Source: a phage. Taken from it: a stretch of 52,601 nucleotides of DNA. Below, piece after piece: positions 3,486 through 52,601 of the stretch; position 1 is the stretch's first letter, and each line of letters begins with the position of its first letter. The position numbers and the translations under genes are program-made. The stretch is taken from the NCBI GenBank assembly GCA_026686805.1, contig GCA_026686805.1_3949.1. One strand, 5' to 3'. Below the pieces are notes generated by a model that had not been told where the DNA came from, ran no database searches, and worked only from the letters and a program-made list of their open reading frames with translations.

Positions 3486-3950
3486 TTATCGTAAAACTTG
3501 GTAAGCTGGAACTGCAAACTTGTTGCCGTTGTTCTTAATGAGGTCTTCTTCTGTTACTAAGAATGTAATCCCACACAAGTGTGTGTATTGGCTATCATAC
3601 TCAAATATTTTAAGTAAGTATTTACCATTGTGATAAACAGATTCTACTACACCTTTTGCAACAATCTTTCCAGTCTTGAAATCTTTAAGAGGGTATACAT
3701 TACCAACTTTAGGGACTGTTTTCATCTCAGGTTCTTTTAGTTTCTCACTAACTTCTACATCACCTAGTAAGTGAGAACTCTCAAACGCTACATATTGCAT
3801 ATAAGCTTCTGAGCATTCCCAGATAAAACAATGTACAAGAATCTTAGCAGCATGTCTTGAGCAATTCAACTTATCACAAATTTCTTTGTACATTTCATCT
3901 TTAGTTGAGTTGTCAAGCATTGCTTTTCGAACTGTTTCTTTAATTTTCAT
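3486..3950 (-). CDS. hypothetical protein (154 aa)
   Basis: ORF from track, tightly packed in leftward operon. Confidence 0.5.
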   Translation of the reverse strand: MKIKETVRKAMLDNSTKDEMYKEICDKLNCSRHAAKILVHCFIWECSEAYMQYVAFESSHLLGDVEVSEKLKEPEMKTVPKVGNVYPLKDFKTGKIVAKGVVESVYHNGKYLLKIFEYDSQYTHLCGITFLVTEEDLIKNNGNKFAVPAYQVLR

Positions 3951-9923: not shown

Positions 9924-10150
9924 TTTTCAGTTCTCCTGCGATTTATGATTTTGCTGCAATAGAGAAACGAAGTAAACTCACTGGAAGAAACCATTAAGTG
10001 TTGTTCACTAGATTGAGCCATTGCCCTGAAATACATTCCAGTCAAAGCATCATAGTGACTATTCTTTCCAATTGAGGTTATATAGCCATGACTCTTTGCA
10101 GTTTGATATAAATCTATAATATCTGCGATTTCTAATTGGGAACTACACAT
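9917..10150 (-). CDS. hypothetical protein (77 aa)
   Basis: ORF from track. Confidence 0.4.
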   Translation of the reverse strand: MCSSQLEIADIIDLYQTAKSHGYITSIGKNSHYDALTGMYFRAMAQSSEQHLMVSSSEFTSFLYCSKIINRRRTEKC

Positions 10151-10392
10151 AGATAATCCTCTTGTCTTCTGTAATTTTGAAAGAACAGGTACAGACCAAT
10201 TTCAGAGGATGAATAGTAGATTGACTCTACCCTTTTTGATTCCTTACAGTGATTGGTATTCTTACCTTTCTTCGGTTTATTTGATTTTCTCATTAAGTCT
10301 CCTTTGTAGAACAAGGCAGACCTACAGCTTTAAGTAAGATGGTACAGTAATCCATACAACAAGTCAAGAACTATTGCAAGTTAAAAAAGTTG

Positions 10393-10416
10393 TTGACAAA
10401 GTACTTGACAAGGTGT
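10393..10416 (+). promoter_or_regulatory. conserved element gttgacaaWgtacttgacaaggtgt with tandem TTGACA boxes (copy 1)
   Basis: near-identical copy at 52541-52565; lies in divergent intergenic region upstream of the + strand gene at 10543. Confidence 0.35.
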
Positions 10417-10542
10417 AGGCTTATAAATACTTAGAAGATTACTTAAAAGGTTCCTCTAAAAAGGCTATTTAAACAGATATCTTTCTGGATATCTATCTTT
10501 TATCTTAAAAGCCTTTTAAGAGGTCTTATAAGAGGCATACCA

Positions 10543-10914
10543 ATGAAAAACAGAACAAACAAAGGCCAGTTTAAAAAAGGCCAATCTGGAAACCCATCTG
10601 GAAGACCAAAAGGCTCTCGCAACAAAAGCTCACTTGTAAAAGCTCAACTGACCATTGACAATTCTGCTGAGTTTGCTGCAAAGTTATTTGAAGCGATTGT
10701 TACAAGGGATGCTGCTAAGCTTGCAGAGTTCGGGTTAAACACAGATGACGTAACCATCAAGAGTATGATTGAGGTCGGTAAAACTATCTTTACTCACTCA
10801 GCAGGTGAGATGAAAGCACTTGCAGCAGACACTAAGAAGACTCCTGATAATGGTGGTCAACAACAGACAGATAACAAACCAACGTTCTCTGCTGTAGCGA
10901 CTCTTAAAAAATAA
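10543..10914 (+). CDS. hypothetical protein with basic N-terminal GNPSGRPKG (AT-hook-like) motif
   Basis: ORF with AAGAGG RBS; motif KGQSGNPSGRPKGSRNK suggests nucleic-acid binding (inference). Confidence 0.55.
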   Translation: MKNRTNKGQFKKGQSGNPSGRPKGSRNKSSLVKAQLTIDNSAEFAAKLFEAIVTRDAAKLAEFGLNTDDVTIKSMIEVGKTIFTHSAGEMKALAADTKKTPDNGGQQQTDNKPTFSAVATLKK

Positions 10915-10925
10915 TTTTAAAAGGT

Positions 10926-10961
10926 GTTGACAGACTCTATAAAGTTGCTCTAAAGTCTGTC
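10926..10961 (+). promoter_or_regulatory. perfect 9-bp inverted repeat (tgacagact / agtctgtca) containing a TTGACA box, between two genes
   Basis: seen directly; hairpin 10927-10961 with 17-nt loop; could be terminator-like hairpin and/or operator/promoter. Confidence 0.3.
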
Positions 10962-10995
10962 ACATCAACAAACAAATGAGAGAAGAGAGTAAAAT

Positions 10996-12411
10996 ATGAG
11001 CGAATTATTTAAACATGCGCACCTTCATGCAGGTCGAACTGAAAATGGTGCTGTAAACCATACTTCATCAATGTCTGCTCTTGTAGACTTTTACAAAGCT
11101 GCTGGTTCAAGCCGTAGCAACGTAGAAATCTTACCAGACCTGTTCTACAAAGCTTTGCGTGAGGATGTTGATGTTGTAGTTCGTATTTTGCTTCATATGC
11201 GAGATGTACGAGAAGGTATGGGTGAGCGTAAAGCCTTCAGAACTGTTTTACTTCAAGCGATTGAAGACAAAGTTTTAGAGCCTACGCAGGTTCTTCGCAT
11301 TATGGATAAGATTGCAGAACTTGGTCGTTTTGATGACTTCAAAATCTTCGTAGGTACTCGTTTCGAGACAGATGCCTTCAAACATCTAGAAGCAGCATTA
11401 CTAGACCCTGCAACAGCAGGTTTGGCGGCTAAGTGGTTACCACGAGTCAAACCACGTCATAAGCAGTTTGTAAAACGTTTCTGCAAGTTTGCCAACTTGA
11501 GTGAGAAAGAGTACCGCACACTGTTGTCTGCACTATCTGATACAGTTGAGCAAAAAATCTCTGCTAATGAGTTTGGTAAGATTGACTACAGTAAGATTCC
11601 TTCACTTGCTGCTGCACGTTACCAAAAACTGTTTAACCGCAAAGATGGAGAACGCTACAAAGCTTACATCGAGTCCTTATCAAAGGGTGAGGCTAAGATT
11701 AATGCTGGTGCTGTTTACCCATACGATGTAATTAAATCTGTTAAGCATGGTAATGCAGATGTTGCTAATGAGCAGTGGAAAGCACTACCAAACTGGATGG
11801 CAGAGGGTGAAAACATCTTGTGTATGTCTGATGTTTCAAGCTCAATGTCTTGGGTGAATTTTGGTTCAATTACTGCTCTTGATATTGGTGTTTCACTTGC
11901 ATTGTATGTAGCAGAACGTAATACAGGTTGCTTTAAGAATGAGTTGATGGTTTATTCAACAAACCCTCACTTCATCGAACTGAGTGGTGATTTACGAAAC
12001 CGTCATCGTCAGGTGATGCGACACGTTGAATATGGCTCAACTAACTTACAAGCAGCTTTTGACCGTATTCTTGAAACAGGTAAAAGAAACAACTTGACTC
12101 AGAAAGATATGCCAAGTAAGCTTATCATCTTCTCCGATATGGAGTTCAATCAGGTTGATGGAGCTAACGGTCGTACAAACTTTGAAGCAATTCGTAGTAA
12201 GTACAAAAAAGCTGGATACGAAATGCCTCAACTGGTATTCTGGTACTTAGCAAACCGTAATGGTACTTGCGAAGTGTCTGTTAAGGATAACGGTGTAGCA
12301 ATGGTATCTGGTTTTTCTCCAGCTACTTTAAAAGCTCTGCTTGGTGGTGAGAAGTTTGACCCAATCAGTGTAATGCTCAAAGCAGTAATGATTGACCGTT
12401 ATATCTGGTAA
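10996..12411 (+). CDS. von Willebrand factor A (vWA) domain protein with MIDAS motif, N-terminal helical domain
   Basis: DxSxS MIDAS-like motif (MSDVSSSMS) followed by hydrophobic strand ...LIIFSDMEFNQ; 471 aa; RBS present. Confidence 0.55.
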   Translation: MSELFKHAHLHAGRTENGAVNHTSSMSALVDFYKAAGSSRSNVEILPDLFYKALREDVDVVVRILLHMRDVREGMGERKAFRTVLLQAIEDKVLEPTQVLRIMDKIAELGRFDDFKIFVGTRFETDAFKHLEAALLDPATAGLAAKWLPRVKPRHKQFVKRFCKFANLSEKEYRTLLSALSDTVEQKISANEFGKIDYSKIPSLAAARYQKLFNRKDGERYKAYIESLSKGEAKINAGAVYPYDVIKSVKHGNADVANEQWKALPNWMAEGENILCMSDVSSSMSWVNFGSITALDIGVSLALYVAERNTGCFKNELMVYSTNPHFIELSGDLRNRHRQVMRHVEYGSTNLQAAFDRILETGKRNNLTQKDMPSKLIIFSDMEFNQVDGANGRTNFEAIRSKYKKAGYEMPQLVFWYLANRNGTCEVSVKDNGVAMVSGFSPATLKALLGGEKFDPISVMLKAVMIDRYIW

Positions 12412-12420
12412 AAAGTTTTA

Positions 12421-12457
12421 AAAAGGGTATTGACAATGTGTTTGATACCCTTTAATA
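12421..12457 (+). promoter_or_regulatory. sigma70-like promoter TTGACA-17-TAATAT embedded in a perfect 9-bp inverted repeat, upstream of the tRNA array
   Basis: -35 ttgaca 12429-12434, 17-nt spacer, -10 taatat 12452-12457; inverted repeat aaagggtat(12421-12429)/atacccttt(12444-12452). Confidence 0.45.
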
Positions 12458-12576: not shown

Positions 12577-12653
12577 CTCTGTTTAGCTCAGCTTGGTAGA
12601 GCGTTCCGTTTGGGGCGGTAAGGCCGGAGGTTCAAGTCCTCCAACAGAGACCA
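12577..12653 (+). tRNA. tRNA-Pro (anticodon TGG)
   Basis: hand-folded cloverleaf: acceptor ctctgtt/aacagag, D-arm gctcagcttggtagagc, anticodon loop ttTGGgg, T-loop ttcaagt, CCA encoded. Confidence 0.65.
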
Positions 12654-12660
12654 AATTAAT

Positions 12661-12738
12661 GTTCCAGTAGACAAAATGGTAAAGTCACCACTCTTTCAAA
12701 GTGGATATCTGAGGGTTCAAATCCCTTCTGGAACGCCA
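12661..12738 (+). tRNA. tRNA-Glu (anticodon TTC)
   Basis: acceptor gttccag/ctggaac, anticodon stem ccact/agtgg, loop ctTTCaa, T-loop ttcaaat, CCA encoded. Confidence 0.75.
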
Positions 12739-12745
12739 GTTTTGA

Positions 12746-12817
12746 CAGAAGACCAATTACAGCAAACTTAATCTACTCATCTGACACGAAATCGGACAAA
12801 GAAGATATTTGGTCTGG
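12746..12817 (+). repeat. bipartite spacer element copy a (CAGAAGACC-nnWTWCAGCAA ... GGTCTGG)
   Basis: seen directly; 5' block 12746-12765, 3' block 12811-12817; agacc/ggtct can pair. Confidence 0.5.
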
Positions 12818-12828
12818 TCATTGAGAAT

Positions 12829-12905
12829 TGCGGGTATAGAGAAAGGGCGTCTCACATGTCTCATTAGCATGGTATCGGCAGGTTCGACTCCTGCACCCGC
12901 CTCCA
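12829..12905 (+). tRNA. tRNA with CAT anticodon (Met or Ile-lysidine type)
   Basis: anticodon stem catgt/gcatg, loop ctCATta, T-arm gcagg-ttcgact-cctgc, CCA encoded; acceptor has a mismatch at one end so boundaries +/-1. Confidence 0.6.
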
Positions 12906-12911
12906 ATTTTG

Positions 12912-12971
12912 CAGAAGACCGTATTCAGCAACAAAATACTTTTTGCGGATAAAAGAAAAAACACGGTCTGG
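12912..12971 (+). repeat. bipartite spacer element copy b
   Basis: gcagaagaccgtattcagcaa ... acacggtctgg. Confidence 0.5.
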
Positions 12972-12982
12972 CAATGTATTAA

Positions 12983-13059
12983 GGTTAGGAAGCACATAAG
13001 GTATGTGCGGTCGCCTGTTAAGCGAATGGCACAGGGTTCGAATCCCTGACTAACCGCCA
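12983..13059 (+). tRNA. tRNA-Asn (anticodon GTT)
   Basis: acceptor ggttagg/actaacc, D-stem gcac/gtgc, anticodon loop ctGTTaa, T-arm caggg-ttcgaat-ccctg, CCA encoded. Confidence 0.7.
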
Positions 13060-13067
13060 AATTAAAT

Positions 13068-13155
13068 GTGTCGTTATCCCGTAGATGGTAGCGGTGGGGA
13101 CTGTAAATCCCTTGTCATTGAGACTCGGTAGGTTCGACTCCTACACGGCACACCA
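13068..13155 (+). tRNA. tRNA-Tyr (anticodon GTA), long variable arm
   Basis: acceptor gtgtcgt/acggcac, anticodon stem gggga/tccct, loop ctGTAaa, long variable arm, T-arm gtagg-ttcgact-cctac, CCA. Confidence 0.7.
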
Positions 13156-13160
13156 ATAAA

Positions 13161-13237
13161 GGCTATGTAGTTTAACTGGAGAAAATACTCCCCTGTCACG
13201 GGAGATGATGTGAGTTCAAGTCTCATCGTAGCCGCCA
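13161..13237 (+). tRNA. tRNA-Asp (anticodon GTC)
   Basis: acceptor ggctatg/cgtagcc, anticodon stem ctccc/gggag, loop ctGTCac, T-loop ttcaagt, CCA. Confidence 0.75.
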
Positions 13238-13298
13238 ATTTTGAGAGGGCTATTTAGCCCCTCCCTTAAAGAGTTCTTACGAGTATTCTTTAAAGGAG

Positions 13299-13372
13299 CA
13301 GAAGACCAAATACAGCAAGAATGTATGAAATTTCAAGCCAATTTAATTTTGAAAATTTAAAACTTGGTCTGG
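13299..13372 (+). repeat. bipartite spacer element copy c
   Basis: agcagaagaccaaatacagcaa ... aacttggtctgg. Confidence 0.5.
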
Positions 13373-13385
13373 CTCAACAAATTTA

Positions 13386-13517
13386 CAGAAGACCGTTTAC
13401 AGCAAAACTTAAACAATCTATTTCTCCGGTAAAGAAAAGGCGAAGGTTCGATTCCTTCACTCGGCAGATGTCGAGTTGGTGTAATGGTAGCACTTAAGAT
13501 GATAAACAACGGTCTGG
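13386..13517 (+). repeat. bipartite spacer element copy d, enclosing a tRNA-like relic
   Basis: acagaagaccgtttacagcaa ... aacaacggtctgg; interior holds T-arm/acceptor-like and acceptor/D-arm-like segments. Confidence 0.5.
13442..13495 (+). other. tRNA-like relic in reversed half order (T-arm + 3' acceptor strand immediately followed by complementary 5' acceptor strand + D-arm)
   Basis: gaagg-ttcgatt-ccttc + actcggc then gtcgagt + ggtgtaatggtagcac; no complete cloverleaf can be drawn. Confidence 0.35.
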
Positions 13518-13666
13518 TAATTATCTTTGTAGATAAGTTATTAAGCTTACCTGTGAGTATGCGACCACAAAGGGTGAAAGGGTAAATTCTAGATTTAAAC
13601 CCAACAAGGCACATCGCTACAGACCTTAAGCAAGTCTGGGTAGCTTATCTACAAAGGTAATTTAAT

Positions 13667-13742
13667 GGAAGTGTAGCAGAATGGTGATGCGGCAGACTTT
13701 TAATCTGACAGGCGATGGGTTCGAATCCCTCCACTTCTACCA
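13667..13742 (+). tRNA. tRNA-Lys (anticodon TTT)
   Basis: acceptor ggaagtg/cacttct, anticodon loop ctTTTaa, T-loop ttcgaat, CCA; T-stem weak in my fold. Confidence 0.6.
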
Positions 13743-13746
13743 AAAT

Positions 13747-13823
13747 GGTTCAGTCGCAGATAAGGTAATGCAAGGGTCTCATAAGCCCTATGAATGTGGG
13801 TTCAATTCCCATCTGAACCTCCA
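13747..13823 (+). tRNA. tRNA with CAT anticodon (Met, initiator or Ile-lysidine type)
   Basis: acceptor ggttcag/ctgaacc, anticodon stem agggt/gccct, loop ctCATaa, T-loop ttcaatt, CCA. Confidence 0.7.
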
Positions 13824-13831
13824 ATTTATCG

Positions 13832-14326
13832 GTGATACTTATGATTTGTGCTAACAAAGATTGCGGAAATGAAGCCGTTAAAGGTGGAAAATTTTGCTCA
13901 CGCTCTTGTTCTGCAAAAGTGAACAACAAGAAACACCCAAAGAGAAGTCAGGAAGGCTCTTGCCATTCATGCGGAAAGGTAACGCCAAAAGCAAGAAAAT
14001 ACTGTGACGAATGTATTTCAGGTGGAGTCATGAAAAAACATAAGACCCATCATGAAAAAAGCAAAGCTAAATCACTGCACGTTAAAAAGTCTCGTGATAG
14101 ACTGAAGAAGGCTTTAGTTGATTACAAGGGTGGTTGTTGTTCAATTTGTGGTTACAATAGGTGCATAAAGGCTCTAGAGTTTCACCACTTAGACCCTAAC
14201 ACAAAAGACTTCACAGTAGGTCAAAAACACTACTCACTGGCTACAATGCAGTCTGAAGTTGATAAGTGTGTCTTGCTTTGTGCAAATTGCCATAGAGAAG
14301 TACACGAAGGGGTAACAATGCTGTGA
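13832..14326 (+). CDS. HNH homing endonuclease (Cys-rich N-terminus, C-terminal HNH motif)
   Basis: C-terminal ...CSICGYNRC...LEFHHLDPNTKDF...CVLLCANCHREVHEG = HNH signature; embedded in tRNA array; stop codon overlaps start of tRNA-Ile. Confidence 0.75.
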   Translation: MILMICANKDCGNEAVKGGKFCSRSCSAKVNNKKHPKRSQEGSCHSCGKVTPKARKYCDECISGGVMKKHKTHHEKSKAKSLHVKKSRDRLKKALVDYKGGCCSICGYNRCIKALEFHHLDPNTKDFTVGQKHYSLATMQSEVDKCVLLCANCHREVHEGVTML

Positions 14327-14395
14327 AAGCACATATGGATGTGCATTCGGCTGATAACCGAAAGGTAGAAGGTTCGAATCCTTCTCACAGTACCA
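14320..14395 (+). tRNA. tRNA-Ile (anticodon GAT)
   Basis: acceptor gctgtga/tcacagt, D-stem gcac/gtgc, anticodon stem ttcgg/ccgaa, loop ctGATaa, T-arm gaagg-ttcgaat-ccttc, CCA. Confidence 0.75.
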
Positions 14396-14410
14396 ATTTC
14401 AATAAAGTTG

Positions 14411-14439
14411 TTGACATTGAGATGCGACTACTTTATAGT
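14411..14439 (+). promoter_or_regulatory. sigma70-like promoter TTGACA-17-TATAGT inside the tRNA array
   Basis: -35 ttgaca 14411-14416, 17-nt spacer, -10 tatagt 14434-14439. Confidence 0.5.
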
Positions 14440-14445
14440 AACCTT

Positions 14446-14610
14446 AGTTTTCGTTGCGTAGCGTCTATTTTGCAAATTTAAAATAAATGCAAACGACAAT
14501 GTTTTTCTGGCAGTAGCTTGATAGGCTAAACACCAGTGAGGTCTTCCAATCCCTCATCAAAGAATTTGGCGTACTAGCCCACGGTATGATTAATAAGGTG
14601 GGCATCTTTA
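14446..14610 (+). ncRNA. candidate small structured RNA downstream of promoter (no coding potential, no tRNA fold)
   Basis: hairpins tttgca/tgcaaa and gcccac(14577-14582)/gtgggc(14598-14603) followed by atcttt; purely structural inference. Confidence 0.2.
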
Positions 14611-14643
14611 AGGGCTTTCTAAGAGAGTCTTTAAAGATAATTA

Positions 14644-14725
14644 CGGGGCGTATCTCAGCGGTCTTCTAAACCGCCGTTAACCGAGTAAGTGGAGTATGCG
14701 GGTTCGAGTCCTGCCGCCTCGACCA
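14644..14725 (+). tRNA. atypical tRNA-like gene, possible tRNA-Arg (anticodon TCT); D-arm not placeable, 23-nt region between anticodon and T arms
   Basis: acceptor cggggcg/cgcctcg, perfect anticodon arm gcggt-ctTCTaa-accgc, T-arm gcggg-ttcgagt-cctgc, CCA; geometry non-canonical. Confidence 0.35.
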
Positions 14726-14868
14726 ATTTAGTTAGCAGATTACTTAGACGACCTTATCGGGTCTCCGTGTAAGGAGGTGGTCTGTATCTCATGTTTTCCA
14801 GAACATGTAAATAATCTGAGAAGGGGCTTTACAGTGTTGAGATAATACGGTAAGCTTCGAATTATAGT

Positions 14869-14951
14869 ATGGGACGATGTTAAGACTCTAAGGCATGAGC
14901 AACGGCTTCCAACACCGTTTCAAAGGGGTTCAACTCCTCCGTCCCATGCCA
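14869..14951 (+). tRNA. atypical tRNA-like gene, possible tRNA-Trp (anticodon CCA); 7 extra nt between acceptor and D-arm
   Basis: acceptor atgggac/gtcccat (7/7), anticodon arm acggc-ttCCAac-accgt, T-loop ttcaact, CCA. Confidence 0.35.
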
Positions 14952-14964
14952 AAGTCTTATTAGG

Positions 14965-15052
14965 GGTAGGTAGCGGCTAATGGTAGCCAAACTGTCTTGA
15001 AAACAGTTGCCACTGTAGAGATACGGTGAGGGTTCGACTCCTTTACTTACCG
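14965..15052 (+). tRNA. tRNA-Ser (anticodon TGA), long variable arm
   Basis: acceptor ggtaggt/acttacc, perfect anticodon stem actgt/acagt, loop ctTGAaa, 20-nt variable arm, T-arm gaggg-ttcgact-ccttt; CCA not encoded. Confidence 0.7.
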
Positions 15053-15310
15053 CCTAATAAGATTTTAAAGCCAAGCTTCATTCGGATGTTGCTTTGGTAT
15101 CCCTCGTGTATTGTCGTACACACTGATAAAACACCTAGTAGGTGTCACGGAGAAGAGATAATATCAAGCTCTCCAAAGGTTCTAGTCACCGGATTAAACA
15201 AGACTATGCAAAGACCTTTTTAGGTCTTTTTAGAGGGCTTCTAAGGTTATTACGGCTTGTTGTGGAACCTTGTTGCTTAGGTTCTTAGAAGTTCTCTAAA
15301 AAGATTTAAT

Positions 15311-15388
15311 GGGAGATTGACGGTAATTGGTAAACCTATCTCGCTTAGAACGAGATGTTTGAGGGTTCGAATCCCTTGTCTCCTACCA
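15311..15388 (+). tRNA. tRNA with TAG anticodon (Leu by anticodon), short variable loop
   Basis: acceptor gggagat/gtctcct, perfect anticodon stem tctcg/cgaga, loop ctTAGaa, T-loop ttcgaat, CCA; class I architecture unusual for Leu. Confidence 0.55.
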
Positions 15389-15395
15389 AATTAAT

Positions 15396-15471
15396 GCAGG
15401 TGTAGCAAAATGGTTATGCGGCTGACTCTTAATCAGTAAGACGATGGGTTCAATTCCCTCCACCTGTACCA
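15396..15471 (+). tRNA. tRNA-Lys (anticodon CTT)
   Basis: acceptor gcaggtg/cacctgt, anticodon stem gctga/tcagt, loop ctCTTaa, T-loop ttcaatt, CCA. Confidence 0.65.
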
Positions 15472-15476
15472 AAAAT

Positions 15477-15552
15477 GGGGTCATAGTTTATATGGTTAAA
15501 ATTCGAGTTTTGCAAACTTGGGAACTGAGTTCAATTCTCAGTGACTCCACCA
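15477..15552 (+). tRNA. tRNA-Ala (anticodon TGC)
   Basis: acceptor ggggtca/tgactcc, anticodon stem cgagt/acttg, loop ttTGCaa, T-loop ttcaatt, CCA. Confidence 0.65.
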
Positions 15553-15558
15553 ATTAGT

Positions 15559-15633
15559 GCATCCATAGTTTAAACGGGAAAATTACAGTCTTCCAAACTG
15601 AGGTTGAGGGTTCGATTCCCTCTGGATGCTCCA
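15559..15633 (+). tRNA. tRNA-Gly (anticodon TCC)
   Basis: acceptor gcatcca/tggatgc, anticodon loop ctTCCaa, T-arm gaggg-ttcgatt-ccctc, CCA. Confidence 0.7.
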
Positions 15634-15640
15634 AATTAAT

Positions 15641-15716
15641 GCTCCTATCGTATAATTGGCTATTACGGTTGCCTTGTAAGCAACTTATCAGGGTTCGAAT
15701 CCTTGTGGGAGCACCA
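15641..15716 (+). tRNA. tRNA-Thr (anticodon TGT)
   Basis: acceptor gctccta/tgggagc, perfect anticodon stem gttgc/gcaac, loop ctTGTaa, T-loop ttcgaat, CCA. Confidence 0.75.
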
Positions 15717-15718
15717 AT

Positions 15719-15811
15719 TCAGAGGTCAAGTGAAAGACCGCTGGTGTCAACTGAAGACCGTAACAAATTCCACGGAGTTGAGTTAGCGGCACAACTTCAG
15801 ACCTCTTTCAC
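15719..15811 (+). other. structured spacer element (inverted repeat agaggtc ... gacctct, internal gaagaccgtaacaaattc block)
   Basis: seen directly; related to the CAGAAGACC-containing spacer elements; function unknown. Confidence 0.3.
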
Positions 15812-15886
15812 ACTCGCTTAGTTTATATGGTAAAACATCACCCTTACAAGATGAAGAAAAAGGTTCAAGTCCTTTAGTGAGTACCA
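15812..15886 (+). tRNA. tRNA-Val (anticodon TAC)
   Basis: acceptor actcgct/agtgagt, anticodon stem tcacc/gatga (one mismatch), loop ctTACaa, T-arm aaagg-ttcaagt-ccttt, CCA. Confidence 0.65.
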
Positions 15887-15887
15887 T

Positions 15888-15965
15888 GTTCCAGTATCCC
15901 AATTGGCAGAGGATGCAAGCTCAAACCTTGTATTAGTGACGGTTCGAATCCGTCTTGGAACACCA
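15888..15965 (+). tRNA. tRNA with CAA anticodon (Leu by anticodon), short variable loop
   Basis: acceptor gttccag/ttggaac, anticodon stem gcaag/cttgt, loop ctCAAac, T-arm gacgg-ttcgaat-ccgtc, CCA. Confidence 0.55.
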
Positions 15966-15981
15966 ATTTTAGGAGAACACT

Positions 15982-16089
15982 ATGAGCAATAAGTCAATTG
16001 CAAAAAAGTTTAGAGCGTCATACCTAAACAGACGTAAAAACAAAGTTTGTGAAAAACTGTATGGTGTTCTCGTAGGTAAGCAGGATTAG
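15982..16089 (+). CDS. possible small ORF (35 aa, basic) overlapping the 5' end of tRNA-Arg
   Basis: AGGAG RBS 6 nt upstream of ATG; below the track's 60-aa cutoff; overlap with tRNA makes it doubtful. Confidence 0.2.
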   Translation: MSNKSIAKKFRASYLNRRKNKVCEKLYGVLVGKQD

Positions 16090-16155
16090 TTCAAATGGAT
16101 AGAGCAACAGTCTACGAAGCTGTTAATAGGGGTTCGAATCCCTTATCCTGCACCA
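16080..16155 (+). tRNA. tRNA-Arg (anticodon ACG)
   Basis: acceptor gcaggat/atcctgc, D-arm gttcaaatggatagagc, anticodon stem acagt/gctgt, loop ctACGaa, T-loop ttcgaat, CCA. Confidence 0.75.
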
Positions 16156-16174
16156 ATTTAAAGAGGCTATTTAG

Positions 16175-16732
16175 ATGAGATATTTGAAGTATGCTTCATG
16201 GATTTTCTTAGCTTTGTTAGAGCCATTTGCAGCAATCTTAGCAGTTATCTTAGCACCTTTTGTAGTTCCATTCTACAGTGAGAAGAAAGGACACTTACCT
16301 TTCGGGTTCAGATGGATGGAGACATATGACAACCCAATTGATGGTGATGAAGGTCACGTTAAAAGATGGGCTAATATCAGATGGATTGGTAAACTAGGTG
16401 TCTACATGCAAAGAGTCGGATGGCTCTGGAGAAACAAAGCTTATAACTTCTCTTACCATGTATTAGGAAGAGATGTAAAAGATGTTACTAAGTGGAAAGG
16501 TAATATCAACGTAAGTTCTGACCCTGAAGATAATCAGACAGGTTATCTACTAATGTGGAACAGTAATGCTTGGGGATTATTCGCTTTTATCCCATCAATT
16601 AAAATCTTTGGTAAACAATTTTACTGGAGAATTTATATTGGATGGAAACTAAAAAGTGTTGTCCCAGAAGAAAGAGCATTCTCAAGGGAAAGAGTTATGT
16701 TGGCATTCTTTATTCATCCACTGAGAAAGTAA
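16175..16732 (+). CDS. hypothetical protein with hydrophobic N-terminus (185 aa), embedded in tRNA array
   Basis: ORF from track; N-terminal hydrophobic segment WIFLALLEPFAAILAVILAPFVVPF. Confidence 0.5.
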   Translation: MRYLKYASWIFLALLEPFAAILAVILAPFVVPFYSEKKGHLPFGFRWMETYDNPIDGDEGHVKRWANIRWIGKLGVYMQRVGWLWRNKAYNFSYHVLGRDVKDVTKWKGNINVSSDPEDNQTGYLLMWNSNAWGLFAFIPSIKIFGKQFYWRIYIGWKLKSVVPEERAFSRERVMLAFFIHPLRK

Positions 16733-16740
16733 AGATTTAA

Positions 16741-16816
16741 AGGGGATTAGTTTACAAGGTTAAAACCTCGGTCTTTGAAATCGAAGAAGTTGGTTCAATT
16801 CCAACATCCCCCGCCA
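16741..16816 (+). tRNA. tRNA-Gln (anticodon TTG)
   Basis: acceptor aggggat/atccccc (1-72 mismatch), anticodon stem tcggt/atcga, loop ctTTGaa, T-arm gttgg-ttcaatt-ccaac, CCA. Confidence 0.65.
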
Positions 16817-16818
16817 AT

Positions 16819-16897
16819 GCTCCATTACTCCAATTGGCAGAGAGGCCAGACTTAAAATCTGTGTTATGTATCGGTTCGAATCCGATATGGAGTACCA
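16819..16897 (+). tRNA. tRNA with TAA anticodon (Leu by anticodon), short variable loop
   Basis: acceptor gctccat/atggagt, anticodon stem caga/tctg, loop ctTAAaa, T-arm atcgg-ttcgaat-ccgat, CCA. Confidence 0.5.
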
Positions 16898-16902
16898 AAT
16901 TT

Positions 16903-16978
16903 AGCGGCATAGCATAACTGGCAATGCAGCAGTCTCTGAAGCTGTCTTATTAAGGTTCAAATCCTTATGCCGCTGCCA
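16903..16978 (+). tRNA. tRNA-Gln (anticodon CTG)
   Basis: acceptor agcggca/tgccgct, D-stem gcat/atgc, anticodon loop ctCTGaa (stem with two G-U pairs), T-arm taagg-ttcaaat-cctta, CCA. Confidence 0.55.
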
Positions 16979-17009
16979 CTTCTAAGGATTCTTACGAGAG
17001 TCCTTAAAT

Positions 17010-17085
17010 GTGGCCTTATCATAAACGGTAATGACCCATGCTGTGAACATGGTCTATACGGGTTCAAATCCCGTAGGTCACCCCA
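17010..17085 (+). tRNA. tRNA-His (anticodon GTG)
   Basis: acceptor gtggcct/aggtcac, perfect anticodon stem ccatg/catgg, loop ctGTGaa, T-arm acggg-ttcaaat-cccgt, CCA. Confidence 0.7.
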
Positions 17086-17091
17086 ATTTAT

Positions 17092-17167
17092 AGTCCAAGT
17101 AGCTTATATGGTTAAAGCGCGTGTCTGAAAAACATGAGAAGAGTGTTCAAATCCCACTGGACTACCA
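17092..17167 (+). tRNA. tRNA-Phe (anticodon GAA)
   Basis: acceptor (t)agtcca/tggact(a), anticodon stem cgtgt/acatg, loop ctGAAaa, T-loop ttcaaat; 5' boundary +/-1. Confidence 0.6.
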
Positions 17168-17183
17168 ATTTCAAAGGTGCTTA

Positions 17184-17918
17184 ATGAAAGAGATGACAGA
17201 ACAAGGTAAGGAGATTTTCAATCTCTTAAAAACCGGTAAAGGGTTTTCTAACCCCCTTATTACTGGTGCAGCAGTTCTCGGTGGAACCGTAGCTGCCTCT
17301 ACATCACTTGTAAGCTCTATTAGCTCTGTATCAGACCCTACAGTAAAGGATAAGCTTGTTGCTGCTGGACTTACAACAGTTCTGCTTAACAGCTTTACCA
17401 CGAGTCTGACAAGCACTACATCAACTACCAAAACACTAACAGATTACGGTCAAAAATCCATTGATGAGTTTTCATCACGTATGCAGGTAGCAAAAGGTTA
17501 TTCTAATGTTATGGGTGCAGCAGGTGAACAAGTTGGCTGTACACCATTTAGTGGTATTATGGGTGTTGCTACAGAGTATGGTCAAAAAGCTATTGATACG
17601 ATTAACAGTGCACTAGATAGTGTTAATGGTGTGTTAAGTGACTTACAAGATGCTATTGACAAAGGTCTTGATACTATTTCTGATTTAGCTGAGCAAGCTG
17701 TTAGTAAGATTAATGAAGGTATTTCAAAAATTACAGCTTATGCAGATGAAGTTGTGCAGATGATTGAAGAAGAAGCTGCTCTTATTGCAGAGTACCTTAA
17801 AACGAATATCAATGGGTTCTTAGCAGGTATCTTACCAGACTGGTTTGATGATGCTTGTAAAACTGGTGTAATTGACACTATTGCAACACCAGAAATGAAG
17901 AACGCATTACAGAAATAA
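17184..17918 (+). CDS. hypothetical Ser/Thr-rich protein (244 aa), embedded in tRNA array
   Basis: track ORF 17121..17918 overlaps tRNA-Phe; ATG at 17184 has RBS aaaggtg and clears the tRNA. Confidence 0.5.
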   Translation: MKEMTEQGKEIFNLLKTGKGFSNPLITGAAVLGGTVAASTSLVSSISSVSDPTVKDKLVAAGLTTVLLNSFTTSLTSTTSTTKTLTDYGQKSIDEFSSRMQVAKGYSNVMGAAGEQVGCTPFSGIMGVATEYGQKAIDTINSALDSVNGVLSDLQDAIDKGLDTISDLAEQAVSKINEGISKITAYADEVVQMIEEEAALIAEYLKTNINGFLAGILPDWFDDACKTGVIDTIATPEMKNALQK

Positions 17919-17920
17919 AT

Positions 17921-18013
17921 GGAAGATTAACCCTAAAAGGTAAGGGAGCAGTTTGCTAAACTGCCAGTAGCTGAGAAATCGGTGTACCAGTTCAAGTCTG
18001 GTATCTTCCTCCA
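17921..18013 (+). tRNA. tRNA-Ser (anticodon GCT), long variable arm
   Basis: acceptor ggaagat/atcttcc, perfect anticodon stem gcagt/actgc, loop ttGCTaa, ~21-nt variable arm, T-arm accag-ttcaagt-ctggt, CCA. Confidence 0.75.
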
Positions 18014-18017
18014 ATTT

Positions 18018-18093
18018 GAATCCGTGACAGAAATGGCTATGTGCCTGTCTGCAAAACAGGTTTATAAGGGTTCGAGTCCCTTCGGATTCTCCA
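18018..18093 (+). tRNA. tRNA-Cys (anticodon GCA)
   Basis: acceptor gaatccg/cggattc, perfect anticodon stem cctgt/acagg, loop ctGCAaa, T-arm aaggg-ttcgagt-ccctt, CCA. Confidence 0.75.
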
Positions 18094-44858: not shown

Positions 44859-45188
44859 TTAATCTGCCAACCTTAAATTAAAATTAACACCAAATTTTTC
44901 ACATACTTCCAACATATACTCAAGGGAAACATTCCCAGTGAGGTGGATTATGTTGGATACACGAGCCTGAGAGATACCACAAATTTTAGCAACTTGCTCT
45001 TGAGAAAGACCTCTGGATTTAATCTCTCTCTTAAAACGATGTGCAACGAAGTCTCTCATTTCATCTACATCCATTGGACAAATATAACTCTCCATTTCAG
45101 CCTCTCTATCAGCCTCCCAATCATCTTGTGGGGCATAGGGGTCAAAAACCTCATTCATCTTTCTTCTTCCGTTTGCGTGAAGTGTCAA
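44859..45188 (-). CDS. helix-turn-helix DNA-binding protein
   Basis: C-terminal HTH-like segment RGLSQEQVAKICGISQARVSNI. Confidence 0.5.
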   Translation of the reverse strand: MTLHANGRRKMNEVFDPYAPQDDWEADREAEMESYICPMDVDEMRDFVAHRFKREIKSRGLSQEQVAKICGISQARVSNIIHLTGNVSLEYMLEVCEKFGVNFNLRLAD

Positions 45189-49001: not shown

Positions 49002-49198
49002 TATTCAATATCTACAAGTTCTTGTGCAACACTTTTAAGGTTACTTTTAAGGAAAACTTTCTCACCACCAGGCAGGGAAGTGTTATCAATGAGTCTATTC
49101 ATTCTCTCAAACAACTTCTGCTTACGGTTCTTGATAGTTTCCTTTGAAGCACCTTTCATCATTGCTGCATGGGTTCTTCCACGGTGGCTCATAATCAC
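48983..49198 (-). CDS. hypothetical protein (71 aa)
   Basis: ORF from track. Confidence 0.4.
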   Translation of the reverse strand: MIMSHRGRTHAAMMKGASKETIKNRKQKLFERMNRLIDNTSLPGGEKVFLKSNLKSVAQELVDIEYWRHQK

Positions 49199-49243
49199 TC
49201 CTATATAAGATACAGTATAAGGTACTCTTCCATGAGCACCTTG

Positions 49244-49810
49244 TCAACTTAGTTTTGCAAACTCTCCGTGGAGTTTTACAGCAGCTTCACAGTAAGCTTT
49301 ATGGGCTTCTTCAGGTGTGTCATAGTAGCCTAATGACATCTTTTTACCTTTATAGCTTATTTGCGCAAACCACCTACCAGACTTCTTCTTCAGGCTTACA
49401 CCCTTATAGCCTGATTTATTGGTGGATAGTTTGCTTTTATTCCAAGCACTTTGGTAGTCATCTGCTTCTCTTAAGTTTACAATCCTGTTATCAAGGGAGT
49501 CTCCATTAATGTGGTCAATAACACCTTTCGGTAACCTACCATACACGTACAGCCATGCGAGTCTGTGTGCTTTATGTGCTTTCTTGTCAAAATAGATAGT
49601 AATCTGCTTATGACCAGTTGAGTCAATCTGGATGCTCCCCGCTACCTGTCCTGCGTACTTACTATTAAAGACTTTAACAGCCCTTGAGTCACCCTCTCTA
49701 CGAAGCCAAGTAAAGACCCCTGTTTCGGGGTCATAGTGTAGTAGCTCCTTTAAACGTTCTTGTGTAATCATTTTGTCACCATTAATGCACTTCCAACCAC
49801 GATTTACCAA
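49244..49810 (-). CDS. HNH homing endonuclease with C-terminal AP2-type DNA-binding domain
   Basis: HNH core ...KAHRLAWLYVYGRLPKGVIDHINGDSLDNRIVNLREA..; AP2-like ...GYKGVS...GRWFAQISYKGKKMSLGYYDTPEEAHKAY..; track start overlaps the polymerase 3' end, alternative ATG at 49771. Confidence 0.7.
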   Translation of the reverse strand: MVNRGWKCINGDKMITQERLKELLHYDPETGVFTWLRREGDSRAVKVFNSKYAGQVAGSIQIDSTGHKQITIYFDKKAHKAHRLAWLYVYGRLPKGVIDHINGDSLDNRIVNLREADDYQSAWNKSKLSTNKSGYKGVSLKKKSGRWFAQISYKGKKMSLGYYDTPEEAHKAYCEAAVKLHGEFAKLS

Positions 49811-52481
49811 CCTTACCAGTACCAGTTACCAGTGTTTCACTCTTTAGTCCTAAGTTCTTAGAGGCTTGCCCGTAATACCAATCAGTGACAGCCTTCACCT
49901 CTGCCGTCATACTTTCTGGGCATTCCCAACTCGTCTCGTCGTGATAGGAGCACAATAAACGAGCACCTATAGCTGGTTTGCGACCGTTCAACTTCATCAA
50001 ACCTTCGTCAATCATACGACGGCAAGCAAGGTTAATTGCCTCGTTCTGAATCTGACTTTCCGAACCCATGAGCAAATAATTCAACAACTTATGTGGAGAT
50101 TTACACCACAACCAAGCTCCAGCAACCTTTACAAAACCCCCTTTAGAGATTGCAGCAGTCTTACCAAACACCTCTTCAAGTGCCTTTTTAGTTGCTTTGT
50201 AGTCAGCTTCCAAGTCATCTAGCAGCTTCTTAATTTTAGGCAAACGAATAAAGTAAGTCTGTTTAGTCAGTGCACCTTCCTGAGTAGTTGCAGCTTTAAT
50301 CGTCTTAGCAAACTTCTCATCACCTGCACCGAACAGCAGTGCATAGATACCATTCTTAGCTTTTTTACGACCCTTACTAATCTCATGGAGAAGATTCTCA
50401 TCCTGAGTGGCTCGACAAGTCAAGATATCCTGCTCATCATTCAAGCTAAAGTAAATACTGTTCAGTGTGTGTGCATCAGTCCCTGAATAGACAACGTACA
50501 GGTCATTCTCAGAGTCATAGCGGAGGTACTTATCAATCTCTGGGTTGAGGTACTCATCAAAGTGTTTGCAGTAATAGCGTCCATCTTCTTGACGAATAAA
50601 CTCAATCTCTTCTTTACCTTGCGTTACCGCTTTGGTGAAGTCTTTGTCACCCATAAAGTTACAAAGAAGAACTAGCTGGGCTGAGTTCATATCTACAGAG
50701 ACGACGTTAGTACCTTCTTCACAAATCCACACTGCCCTCATTGGTTCCCCATAGACAGCAGCACCAGACGGTACGTTTACAATACCATATTGTGTCATAC
50801 GCCCAGTTGAAGTACCAAATACCATTGCACCAGCACTAAGGCGACCATCTGGACGAATCTGGTTTAACCAACCTTTTTCATCATCCTTTGAGTTCTCAAT
50901 GGTTCTGCGTCGGTGCATCAAAGTATAGTATTTAGCAATCTTCTGTCCAAGCTCACCTTCAATCGTATCATAAGAAGATTCAGTAAGTTTTGGTGAAGTA
51001 CGGATTAAGCAAGGTTCAAGCAAATCCGTGTACTTCTTCACAGACCAGTTATGTTCAATGTACTGGACACCTTCATGTTCAACATAACTCAAGCCACACC
51101 GTTCAACCATCTCCTGCCACTTAGGATGCTTTGTAATCATCTTTTTGTTGTCTTTGAAACGACAAACTTTGACAGGGCGACCATCTGAGTCTTTCTTGTA
51201 GTTCCAGTCATCTGGAATCCAACCAACTGACTTCAAGTAGTCTTTAACAACTGCTACCTGAGTCATACGAGAAACTTCAAACTCAATTGGTGTATATGGT
51301 GCATCAATCAATCCTGTGTAGCGACTTGACTCAAGTTCAAAGTGGTTAACAACATGGCTGTTATAGTACTTCACAGTTTTAACAGTTTTTACTGGCTTCC
51401 AGTCTTTGCATTTCTTACCAATCTTTGCATTCAACTCGTTGCAAATTGCACGAGCATCCTTCATTGCTACAAAACCTTCCTTGTACTCTTCACCAGTTAC
51501 AGAGTTGGTTGGTGTGTAGCAATTTCTCTTTTCAATGTTAAAAATCTTTGTAGTTGGCTTACCAAATGGCTTGATTTCGTATGTCTGCATCTCACCGTTA
51601 CGCACCTGTTGACGATACTTTGTCTTAGGATACTTGGTAATTCTCTTCAGTCCATCTGCATGACCAAATGTTTCAACATACTCATTCCAAGCTTTTGCAA
51701 ACTCTTCTCCAGTGACTTTACCTTTGGTCTTAATAGTTGGAGGAAGGTGTGGTTCAACCTCTGAAGCAAGCTCATTAGTCAACTTGTCAAGTTCCTTTAC
51801 ATGGAACTCCATAAGCTCTTTATCAGCTTTCCAACCATTGATAGCTTGTTGGCTCATCCAGAAAGATGTCTCTTTAGCTCGCATGTAAGTTTCATAAGTG
51901 TCTATACCACACTTCTTAAGCTTGAGATACTCGTTATCAAGTGCCCGTTTAGTTTTGGCGTTAATACGGATATCTTCTACAACACGAGTGAAGATTTCTG
52001 CATTCCACACACCCCAATGTTCAATCTCTGGTTTACGAACACCAACACGAGCACCCCATGCAGCCAAACCATGAGCACCTTTATAACCCTTTGGAGTTGG
52101 TCTATCCATCCACTGAACACGAGACTGGATAAGAGAGTCCTGAAAGAAATTACTCCACGGCTTACATTTTGGATTATCAAAGTTCCATAAATCCGGTGCA
52201 ATGTGATTGAAAACCCACCAGTCATAACCGAGACCATTATGGATACAAAGTCGTTTTGCCTTCAACGCAAACTCAATACCTTCACGTAAACCACCCTTAA
52301 TGTACTTAGTGTACTTGTGGCCGAGGATAGGCTCATCTGTGAAGACCCATACAGGTGGCTCTTCATCGTCAGATTTATAGTCTGCAAAAGCCATTACGTG
52401 AACTTTAGTGAACTCAAGGAGTAAACCATCAGTTTCTGTATCACCAACTAAATGTAAGTTTTTAAAATCTACGTTTTCCAT
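49782..52481 (-). CDS. DNA polymerase, family A (Pol I-like) with 3'-5' exonuclease domain
   Basis: exo motif I LVGDTETDGL near N-terminus; polymerase motifs VSVDMNSAQLVLL (A-like), RKKAKNGIYALLFGAG (B-like), CSYHDETSWE (C-like); start set at ATG 52481 (GAGGGAG RBS) rather than track 52511. Confidence 0.8.
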   Translation of the reverse strand: MENVDFKNLHLVGDTETDGLLLEFTKVHVMAFADYKSDDEEPPVWVFTDEPILGHKYTKYIKGGLREGIEFALKAKRLCIHNGLGYDWWVFNHIAPDLWNFDNPKCKPWSNFFQDSLIQSRVQWMDRPTPKGYKGAHGLAAWGARVGVRKPEIEHWGVWNAEIFTRVVEDIRINAKTKRALDNEYLKLKKCGIDTYETYMRAKETSFWMSQQAINGWKADKELMEFHVKELDKLTNELASEVEPHLPPTIKTKGKVTGEEFAKAWNEYVETFGHADGLKRITKYPKTKYRQQVRNGEMQTYEIKPFGKPTTKIFNIEKRNCYTPTNSVTGEEYKEGFVAMKDARAICNELNAKIGKKCKDWKPVKTVKTVKYYNSHVVNHFELESSRYTGLIDAPYTPIEFEVSRMTQVAVVKDYLKSVGWIPDDWNYKKDSDGRPVKVCRFKDNKKMITKHPKWQEMVERCGLSYVEHEGVQYIEHNWSVKKYTDLLEPCLIRTSPKLTESSYDTIEGELGQKIAKYYTLMHRRRTIENSKDDEKGWLNQIRPDGRLSAGAMVFGTSTGRMTQYGIVNVPSGAAVYGEPMRAVWICEEGTNVVSVDMNSAQLVLLCNFMGDKDFTKAVTQGKEEIEFIRQEDGRYYCKHFDEYLNPEIDKYLRYDSENDLYVVYSGTDAHTLNSIYFSLNDEQDILTCRATQDENLLHEISKGRKKAKNGIYALLFGAGDEKFAKTIKAATTQEGALTKQTYFIRLPKIKKLLDDLEADYKATKKALEEVFGKTAAISKGGFVKVAGAWLWCKSPHKLLNYLLMGSESQIQNEAINLACRRMIDEGLMKLNGRKPAIGARLLCSYHDETSWECPESMTAEVKAVTDWYYGQASKNLGLKSETLVTGTGKVGKSWLEVH

Positions 52482-52540
52482 TTTTACTCCCTCTAAAATC
52501 ATTAACCTCATACATTACTGCAAAAAATTATAAAAAGCAA

Positions 52541-52565
52541 GTTGACAATGTACTTGACAAGGTGT
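52541..52565 (+). promoter_or_regulatory. conserved element gttgacaaWgtacttgacaaggtgt with tandem TTGACA boxes (copy 2)
   Basis: near-identical to 10392-10416; upstream of polymerase start in a divergent region. Confidence 0.35.
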
Positions 52566-52601
52566 TAATCTTTGCGAAGTGGGTTTTTACTTAAAAGGTT
52601 A

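Follow-up and report, generated by a model that had tools for sequence, protein, structure and literature searches.

Two copies of a 25-nt element with tandem TTGACAA boxes at the divergent gene-block junctions of a Felix O1-like phage: predicted host sigma70 promoters with a candidate operator box

The early promoters of phages lambda (PL/PR), T7 (A1–A3) and T5 stand at the head of early units and are read by unmodified host polymerase. TTGACA in a G/T-TTGACA context, an A/T-rich upstream tract and a spacer of 17–18 nt are common to them and to a 25-nt element that occurs twice in a phage contig of 52,601 nt (contig GCA_026686805.1_3949.1 of NCBI GenBank assembly GCA_026686805.1; the whole of this stretch is called the window below). 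A place at the head of early units and use of the unmodified host polymerase would likewise be shared. Unlike those promoters, the element is followed by weak -10 regions (TAGGCT and TAATCT). Each copy contains two TTGACAA heptamers, box 1 and box 2, with a period of exactly 12 bp; to our knowledge, no second TTGACAA is conserved in the spacer of the lambda, T7 or T5 early promoters. The reading somewhat favoured as a whole is that the copies are two paralogous promoters of the host sigma70 polymerase, with box 2 as a probable operator. Its parts differ in strength. That the copies are predicted host-polymerase promoters with box 1 as the -35 hexamer is considered very likely; that box 2 is the operator of a phage regulator is a tentative proposal, held at clearly less than even probability.

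The window corresponds to about 60% of a Felixounavirus genome (Felix O1-like myovirus, 85–90 kb). Its best database matches are 99.5% identical to it, and more than 250 related records are available. In the annotated genome of the complete relative ASO1B (MZ726792.1), genes are arranged in four blocks with two convergent and two divergent junctions, and the 25-mer copies occupy the only two divergent ones, on the same strand. The + block of junction A consists of the DUF5681 gene, the gene of a vWA-type protein, 25 tRNAs, terminase and structural genes. The gene to the right of copy B starts just past the end of the window. The original prediction, made from the letters of the window, had described a 25-nt element present twice about 42 kb apart, placed both copies in divergent intergenic regions and suggested that they mark transcription-unit boundaries; all of this holds, the boundaries being the only two divergent junctions of the genome.

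Promoters at these places have been predicted before. The same four 'transcriptons' appear in the Felix O1 genome paper, whose authors presume divergent promoters at each of the two junctions (PMC3185647). One candidate was found there, P41, composed of box 1, N15 and TATAGG; no further homologous sequences were reported in the 40–41 or 96–97 intergenic regions, and the way in which Felix O1 transcription is timed was stated as not known (PMC3185647). The GenBank annotation of ASO1A and ASO1B gives sigma70-like promoters at both sites; the one of junction A relies on box 2, that of junction B on box 1. With P41 (Whichard et al. 2010) and these annotated features the sites are already sigma70-like promoters, but with different boxes at the two sites. 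Promoter identity is accordingly an earlier prediction of the annotations; the shared 25-mer module and the conserved box 2 are, as far as found, undescribed in the literature.

Copy A (GTTGACAAAGTACTTGACAAGGTGT, 10392–10416) and copy B (GTTGACAATGTACTTGACAAGGTGT, 52541–52565) both lie on the + strand and are one mismatch apart. No further match to the 25-mer is present in the window at up to 3 mismatches, and none at up to 5. One hundred dinucleotide-preserving shuffles of the window yielded 0 matches, and none is expected by chance. The genome of ASO1B carries exactly two copies at up to 5 mismatches (24304 and 66809, both on the + strand), and they are its only perfect TTGACA-N6-TTGACA pairs. 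The versions of Felix O1 are GTTGACAAAGCACTTGACAAGGTAT and GTTGACAATGCACTTGACAAGGTGT. The two junctions are alignable over about 190 nt, far beyond the 25-mer. The alignment spans the leftward -10 region, the A-tract, the 25-mer, a ACTTAAAAGGTT block, an ACAGATA(T)CTTT block and a palindrome before the ribosome-binding site; TTACTTAAAAGGTT lies about 47 nt downstream of each copy. On account of this alignment the junctions are regarded as paralogous control modules, of which the 25-mer is the best-preserved core.

Related pairs of boxes are present at other places. ASO1B has another perfect TTGACA pair at 13302/13315 (13302–13320), with a linker of 7 nt and a period of 13 bp, at the end of the early block; the equivalent position is about 120 nt left of the window start. 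Erwinia phage SunLIRen has a perfect tandem TTGACA pair at 16302, with a linker of 6 nt and the flanks AGCCC...GGGGCT, also at the end of the early block.

Box 1 TTGACA matches the sigma70 -35 hexamer at 6 of 6 positions in both copies and in all genera examined. Its context is aaaaaagttgTTGACA at junction A and ataaaaagcaagTTGACA at junction B. An A-rich tract followed by G/T-TTGACA is common to most other intergenic TTGACA sites with a good -10 in this phage, for example ahead of the tRNA cluster and within the polymerase-side block; the other predicted sigma70 promoters have aaaagttgTTGACA, followed by TAnAnT 16–18 nt later. A TAnnnT hexamer is found 17–18 nt after box 1 in every genus examined, with A at -11 and T at -7 kept. 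At the candidate -10 of copy A (Table 1), Moogleviruses and Suspviruses have TAGCCT or TAGTGT. For copy B, TTAATC at 17 nt is an alternative -10; the Mooglevirus version of the candidate is TAGTCT, and it aligns with TACATT of the orthologue in Erwinia phages.

The most distant relatives examined are Kolesnikviruses of Erwinia (polymerase N-terminus 63% identical). Their junction A has TTGACA-16-TAGAAT. Their junction B holds TTGACA-17-TACATT once, with a downstream leader that is homologous to the one of the coliphages, and because this is a plain promoter, box 1 is regarded as the positional orthologue of an unambiguous -35. The 11-mer TTGACAAGGTG is also found with a single box, once in the window (Table 1) and once at ASO1B 82571, there with TAGGCT at 18 nt; these occurrences suggest that it can act as an ordinary -35 elsewhere. 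The literature search found no paper on TTGACAAGGTG in a phage context. The 3' end of an HNH homing-endonuclease open reading frame (ORF; 49244–49810), which adjoins the polymerase gene downstream, overlaps the single-box promoter of the window.

Table 1. Positions of the boxes, predicted promoter parts, junctions and genes in the window
Feature	Position	Strand	Description
Copy A, box 1	10393–10399	+	TTGACAA
Copy A, linker	10400–10404	+	AGTAC
Copy A, box 2	10405–10411	+	TTGACAA
Copy A, end	10412–10416	+	GGTGT
Copy B, box 1	52542–52548	+	
Copy B, box 2	52554–52560	+	
A-tract	10383–10388	+	directly upstream of box 1, UP-element-like position
Candidate weak -10, copy A	10416–10421	+	TAGGCT, 17 nt after box 1; assigned by position
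Candidate extended -10, copy B	52563–52571	+	TG-T-TAATCT, 18 nt after box 1, TG at -15/-14; putative
Predicted leftward promoters, junction A	10339–10379	-	TTGCAA 10379–10374, TTGACT 10367–10362, 12 bp apart
Predicted DNA-polymerase promoter, junction B	52512–52540	-	-35 TTGCTT 52540–52535, 17 nt, -10 TAATGT 52517–52512
Single-box relative	49219–49247	-	TTGACAAGGTG-17-TACCTT, 11-mer 49247–49237; upstream of small ORF, ATG 49192
Junction A	10294–10542		leftward - block of lysis and small genes; rightward + block starts with DUF5681 gene
Junction B	52482 to window end		- block of DNA polymerase and nucleotide metabolism; + block of replication and ribonucleotide reductase
Rightward leader, junction A	10442–10532	+	predicted 33-pair hairpin ending at DUF5681 ribosome-binding site; z = -3.2
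53-aa ORF	10132–10293	-	ATG 10293, ribosome-binding site AAGGAG; first gene of leftward unit, junction A
DUF5681 protein, 123 aa	10543–10914	+	first gene behind copy A
XRE-type HTH_3 protein	44859–45188	-	99 aa from ATG 45158; Pfam E = 6e-10; PHROG 'transcriptional regulator'
DNA polymerase gene	49782–52481	-	ATG 52481 with ribosome-binding site GGGAG

Partner promoters are predicted in the leftward direction. At junction B the leftward hexamers are kept in Felixounavirus, Mooglevirus and Suspvirus (-10 TAATGT, TAGGGT or TAGTGT) and the 17-nt spacer varies freely, a pattern that, at the sequence level, is a textbook promoter footprint. The leftward -35 lies 1 bp from box 1, so the predicted promoters of junction B stand back to back. 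At junction A each leftward -35-like hexamer is followed 17 nt on by a -10-like one, TATGGA (10356–10351) or TACCAT (10344–10339). The leftward transcript of junction B is predicted to start near 52505, and ATG 52481 is therefore taken as the real start of the polymerase; two other in-frame ATGs, 52502 and 52511, fall at or before the predicted transcript start. Records are inconsistent in this respect: the longest ORF runs from 52511, and some annotate 52502.

Conservation of the boxes was assessed in junctions retrieved from viral contigs by their flanks only, blind to the element, which gave, across three genera, 30 sequences of junction B and 26 of junction A. Box 2 is unchanged in 56 of the 56. 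At junction B six variants are present, composed of TTGACAA, then TGCA, TGTA, TTCA, AGCA, TGCG or TACA, then CTTGACAAGGTGTTAA; box 2 and the following GGTGTTAA are invariant. The junction-A sequences are composed of TTGACAA, AGTA/AGGA/ATGA/GGGG, C/A, TTGACAAG, G/C/A and TGTAG. All substitutions are confined to the linker of 4–5 nt or to two bases after box 2, and indels between the boxes are absent. Both copies occur in all three genera, and six-genome alignments give the same pattern. The linkers of copies A and B differ and change independently, which argues that selection, and not gene conversion, keeps the boxes; gene conversion as the source of the similarity between the copies was rejected on account of this independent divergence.

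Use of box 2 as a -35 at junction B was rejected as well, nothing resembling a -10 being present at 15–19 nt (AAGTGG at 17 nt). Seventeen nt after box 2 of junction A stands TACTTA, which in most Moogleviruses is CACTTA with a shift of 1 nt. The boxes were also considered as leftward -35 hexamers (TTGTCA); one weak candidate is found at junction A (TTGTCA-18-AATAGT) and none at junction B. TGACAA-N5-TTGACA can be taken as a pseudo-palindrome of 17 bp, symmetric at 5 of 6 positions, and just as well as a direct repeat; the partial symmetry is due solely to the near self-complementarity of TTGACAA.

In the mechanism proposed, each 25-mer would be the upstream core of the rightward promoter in a divergent, back-to-back pair read by host sigma70 polymerase. 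Copy A would start the unit of the DUF5681 gene, tRNAs, terminase and structural genes, and copy B the unit of replication and nucleotide metabolism. Box 1 with its A-rich tract would act as the -35, and the remainder of the 25-mer as a spacer ending at a deliberately weak -10. Box 2, at about -23 to -17, would be a control element within the spacer and not a second promoter. Together the boxes would form the operator TGACAA-N5-TTGACA, to which a phage regulator, with the HTH_3 protein as the candidate, would bind and so co-regulate both rightward units. The bound protein would cover the rightward -35 and the spacer; at junction B it would sit immediately upstream of the leftward -35. Since the site abuts that hexamer, binding at junction B could shift the balance of the divergent promoters, as at lambda OR.

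Divergent back-to-back promoters with a shared short control region would be common to these junctions, to lambda OR (PR/PRM) and to promoters with an operator in the spacer, such as Pant/Arc of phage P22. A protein covering the -35 and spacer of one promoter would repress it and at the same time lie just upstream of the other's -35; a gene of the XRE/Cro helix-turn-helix (HTH) type is present in this phage too. Unlike lambda OR, the element has direct repeats with a pseudo-dyad and two sites instead of three graded operators, and protein binding is here only predicted. This phage is strictly virulent, so that any switch would be temporal and not one between lysis and lysogeny.

The HTH_3 protein (Table 1) is the one clear DNA-binding regulator encoded in the window. 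It was found by tblastn in 261 phage records (Escherichia, Salmonella, Shigella and Citrobacter phages), including those of Felixounavirus, Mooglevirus and Suspvirus, and in 0 Erwinia phages, though 34 Erwinia records carry the polymerase. In the whole genome of SunLIRen, where the junction promoters have single boxes, the best match of a local tblastn search reaches only E = 3, and ten small SunLIRen proteins examined have no HTH domain. A solved-structure search with the HTH_3 protein gave no informative relative. The regulator and the tandem junction boxes thus appear to share a phyletic distribution, which is suggestive only.

Several points weigh against the operator-bearing promoter as proposed. 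The -10 hexamers match the consensus at 3 of 6 positions, so that neither copy is called by a consensus scan (threshold of at least 4/6 for each hexamer and at least 9/12 overall); the remark of the original prediction that the -10 is non-canonical is borne out. The -10 hexamers are assigned by position. Felix O1 has GGTATAGGCT as its copy A, and TG before the -10 is therefore not universal. The link to the HTH_3 protein is one of co-occurrence, in clades that also differ in many other genes. XRE proteins usually bind clear palindromes, and the boxes are direct repeats with a pseudo-dyad of 5/6. The available expression timing, described below, is semi-quantitative. A similar element in T4-like phages, finally, suggests that box 2 may act on RNA polymerase itself and not via a phage repressor.

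The T4-like element was met in a pattern scan of viral contigs, in which most matches were chance ones in coding DNA and only the Felix-like and T4-like groups were meaningful. The latter are fragments of aquatic T4-like myoviruses with the gene order uvsY, uvsW, DUF6561 gene, gene 55, gene 47; among isolates, cyanophages and pelagiphages are nearest to them. Retrieval of gene-55 loci by protein similarity gave 80 loci, reduced to 66 unique upstream regions. Most of the 66 have a tandem element just upstream of gene 55, the late-sigma gene, in the antisense direction (at about 590–700 in each locus; at 3907–3929 in another fragment). One form is TTGACA-N6-TTGACA(A/G/T)-N4-TATAGT, the other TTGACA-N5-TTGACAAG-TGTG-TATAGT. 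Box 1 stands a constant 17 nt from the -10, a strong one (TATAGT), and box 2 shifts by 1 bp (period of 11 or 12 bp); this sliding of box 2 at a fixed box 1 spacing supports a -35 role for box 1 and that of a conserved spacer element for box 2. The T4-like element could serve as an antisense promoter or as a site that controls gene 55. No homology with the Felix-like element is asserted, since the search pattern itself partly forces the likeness.

A wider and rather speculative reading, given only a modest chance, is that the tandem -35 (TTGACA, N5–6, TTGACAA, N4–6, -10) is a distinct, recurrent architecture of lytic phages that evolved independently in Felix O1-like and aquatic T4-like phages. 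A small phage DNA-binding protein or RNA polymerase would read box 2 and set early-to-middle timing and the divergent balance. If so, the two copies would be master switches of the whole Felix O1-like programme.

Box 2 might instead belong to a second promoter, each TTGACA having its own -10, so that two overlapping sigma70 promoters 12 bp apart would give two starts and a higher total occupancy. Exactly such a geometry is present in the leftward direction at junction A, where TTGCAA-N6-TTGACT is combined with TATGGA-N6-TACCAT at 17 nt each; the TACTTA that follows box 2 of rightward junction A at 17 nt and the third tandem pair, of 13-bp period, at ASO1B 13302/13315 point the same way. This explanation is nevertheless judged improbable: box 2 of junction B lacks a -10 at 15–19 nt, yet is most strictly conserved there, the second -10 of junction A becomes CACTTA with a shift of 1 nt in most Moogleviruses, and the T4-like analogue keeps 17 nt to the -10 from box 1 only. 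About equally improbable is a direct effect of box 2, as a spacer element, on the host RNA polymerase, without a phage protein. Box 2 could tune open-complex formation or promoter escape or, as a decoy -35, render the promoter slow or dependent on the polymerase concentration, and the recurrence of TTGACA, N5–6, TTGACAA, N4–6 and a -10 in an unrelated lineage and other hosts, with box 1 spacing fixed at 17 nt, agrees with such a role. Against it, the Erwinia relatives manage without box 2, and the T4-like element is antisense to every neighbouring gene, so that its function may differ; no established mechanism is known to us for a -35-like hexamer at -23 to -18.

A phage-specific promoter class, as put forward in the original prediction, would require a phage-modified polymerase or an unrecognised phage sigma factor or activator, in the manner of T4 middle or late promoters. 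The weak -10, the peak of the flanking genes at 25 min and not 5 min, and the unknown timing mechanism of Felix O1 are in its favour. It is considered quite unlikely: the complete relative holds only the two copies in a genome-wide search, a lack of further copies that the original prediction had itself named among the outcomes speaking against it, box 1 matches the host -35 perfectly and has canonical spacing, and the orthologue of Erwinia phages is an ordinary promoter. Felix O1 was reported to have neither an RNA polymerase of its own nor any known sigma-modifying protein (PMC3185647), which counts against this class. T4 middle promoters share a weak TAnnnT -10, an additional upstream box and delay relative to immediate-early promoters, but there a MotA box centred at -30 takes the place of the -35, and here the -35 is intact with the extra box near -20. 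No TGCTT-type box is present 11–13 nt upstream of the -10 at either copy, and neither MotA nor AsiA was reported for Felix O1 (PMC3185647). The T4 late motif TATAAATA is not enriched (3 observed vs 3.55 expected); its occurrence at 10422–10429 is not conserved in Moogleviruses and was rejected as a T4-late-like promoter. The lambda CII promoters (pRE, pI, paQ; TTGC-N6-TTGC) likewise have direct repeats about one helical turn apart and a poor core element. Their TTGC repeat has a 10-bp period and straddles a poor -35, unlike the TTGACAA repeat of 12 bp with a perfect -35 in box 1; no CII homologue was identified. A regulator-binding site, the other proposal of the original prediction, stays plausible for part of the element; as a whole the element reads as a host promoter. 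Least probable of all is a replication origin or packaging site, with the boxes as iteron-like repeats or the promoter priming replication as at T4 ori(uvsY). The leaders are AT-rich (71% and 76% vs 61% in the window), junction B has the polymerase gene on one side and the primase/helicase genes on the other, and GenBank record Si3 opens 9 nt after copy A. Each site has, however, two boxes (an iteron array has at least 3), two sites 42 kb apart misfit a single pac or cos, GC skew simply tracks gene orientation, and a better origin-like candidate is present at 1228–2924 (ORF-free, 1.7 kb, about 24 repeats).

For the host promoters with a candidate operator, which remain the preferred reading, expression data are available from Felix O1. 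In reverse transcription PCR (RT-PCR), ORFs 41, 42 and 96–98, which flank the two junctions, and ORF 44 peak at 25 min, and ORFs 45–49, behind canonical promoters, peak at 5 min (PMC3185647). This timing fits a weak or regulated promoter at the junctions. A literature search, partly too loose, found no transcript-start or RNA-seq study of any Felixounavirus.

Felix O1 is a classic phage for typing and biocontrol of Salmonella, and its relatives number in the hundreds. The reading places two rightward starting promoters in one paralogous module, offers a testable explanation for the delayed expression around the junctions and narrows attention to a single conserved box of 7 bp and a single small HTH gene. 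If box 2 represents general in-spacer regulation of a sigma70 promoter, it would be a compact part for synthetic promoter design. If the copies are merely ordinary early promoters, the gain is in annotation, namely the polymerase start codon and the divergent promoter pairs.

The rightward leader of junction A (Table 1) shows one compensatory pair in its predicted hairpin, C-G to U-A via a U-G intermediate, between Felixounavirus and Mooglevirus. The leader of junction B is less structured (z = -1.45). No Rfam covariance model matches either ASO1B junction at E <= 1. CTTWWAAG is enriched in the window (25 observed vs 8.3 expected; no shuffle reached 25) and concentrated in non-coding control regions, with clusters at 1590–2472, 10442–10532, 49032–49051 and 52590. 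It includes a perfect palindrome, TCTTAAAAGCCTTTTAAGA, at 10502–10520; relatives have AGCTTTTAAAAAGCT at the homologous place of junction B. The signal partly overlaps AAGAGG ribosome-binding sites.

The ORF-free region at 1228–2924 separates the early (+) block from the lysis-side (-) block, which converge on it. YTGTTAR is present there about 24 times on one strand, within 1763–2815, together with CTTAAAAG, CTTATAAG and CTATAAAG motifs. The region resembles an array of iterons or of protein-binding sites and is therefore a candidate for a replication origin or another kind of cis site.

Behind copy A, the DUF5681 gene is followed within 10543–12411 by that of a 471-aa DUF2828/DUF7788 protein (PHROG 'RNA-binding protein'; vWA-like in some records). 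The cluster of 25 tRNAs (12577–18093) has its own canonical promoters inside hairpins, for example TTGACA-17-TAATAT at 12430. The small terminase is reportedly missing from Felix O1. Felixounavirus sequence is also found in records named Staphylococcus phage SA1 (GU169904.1), Campylobacter phages A126 and A132 and Listeria phage LPML1, mostly at 95–99% identity; these are probably chimeric or contaminated assemblies and not true host-range outliers.

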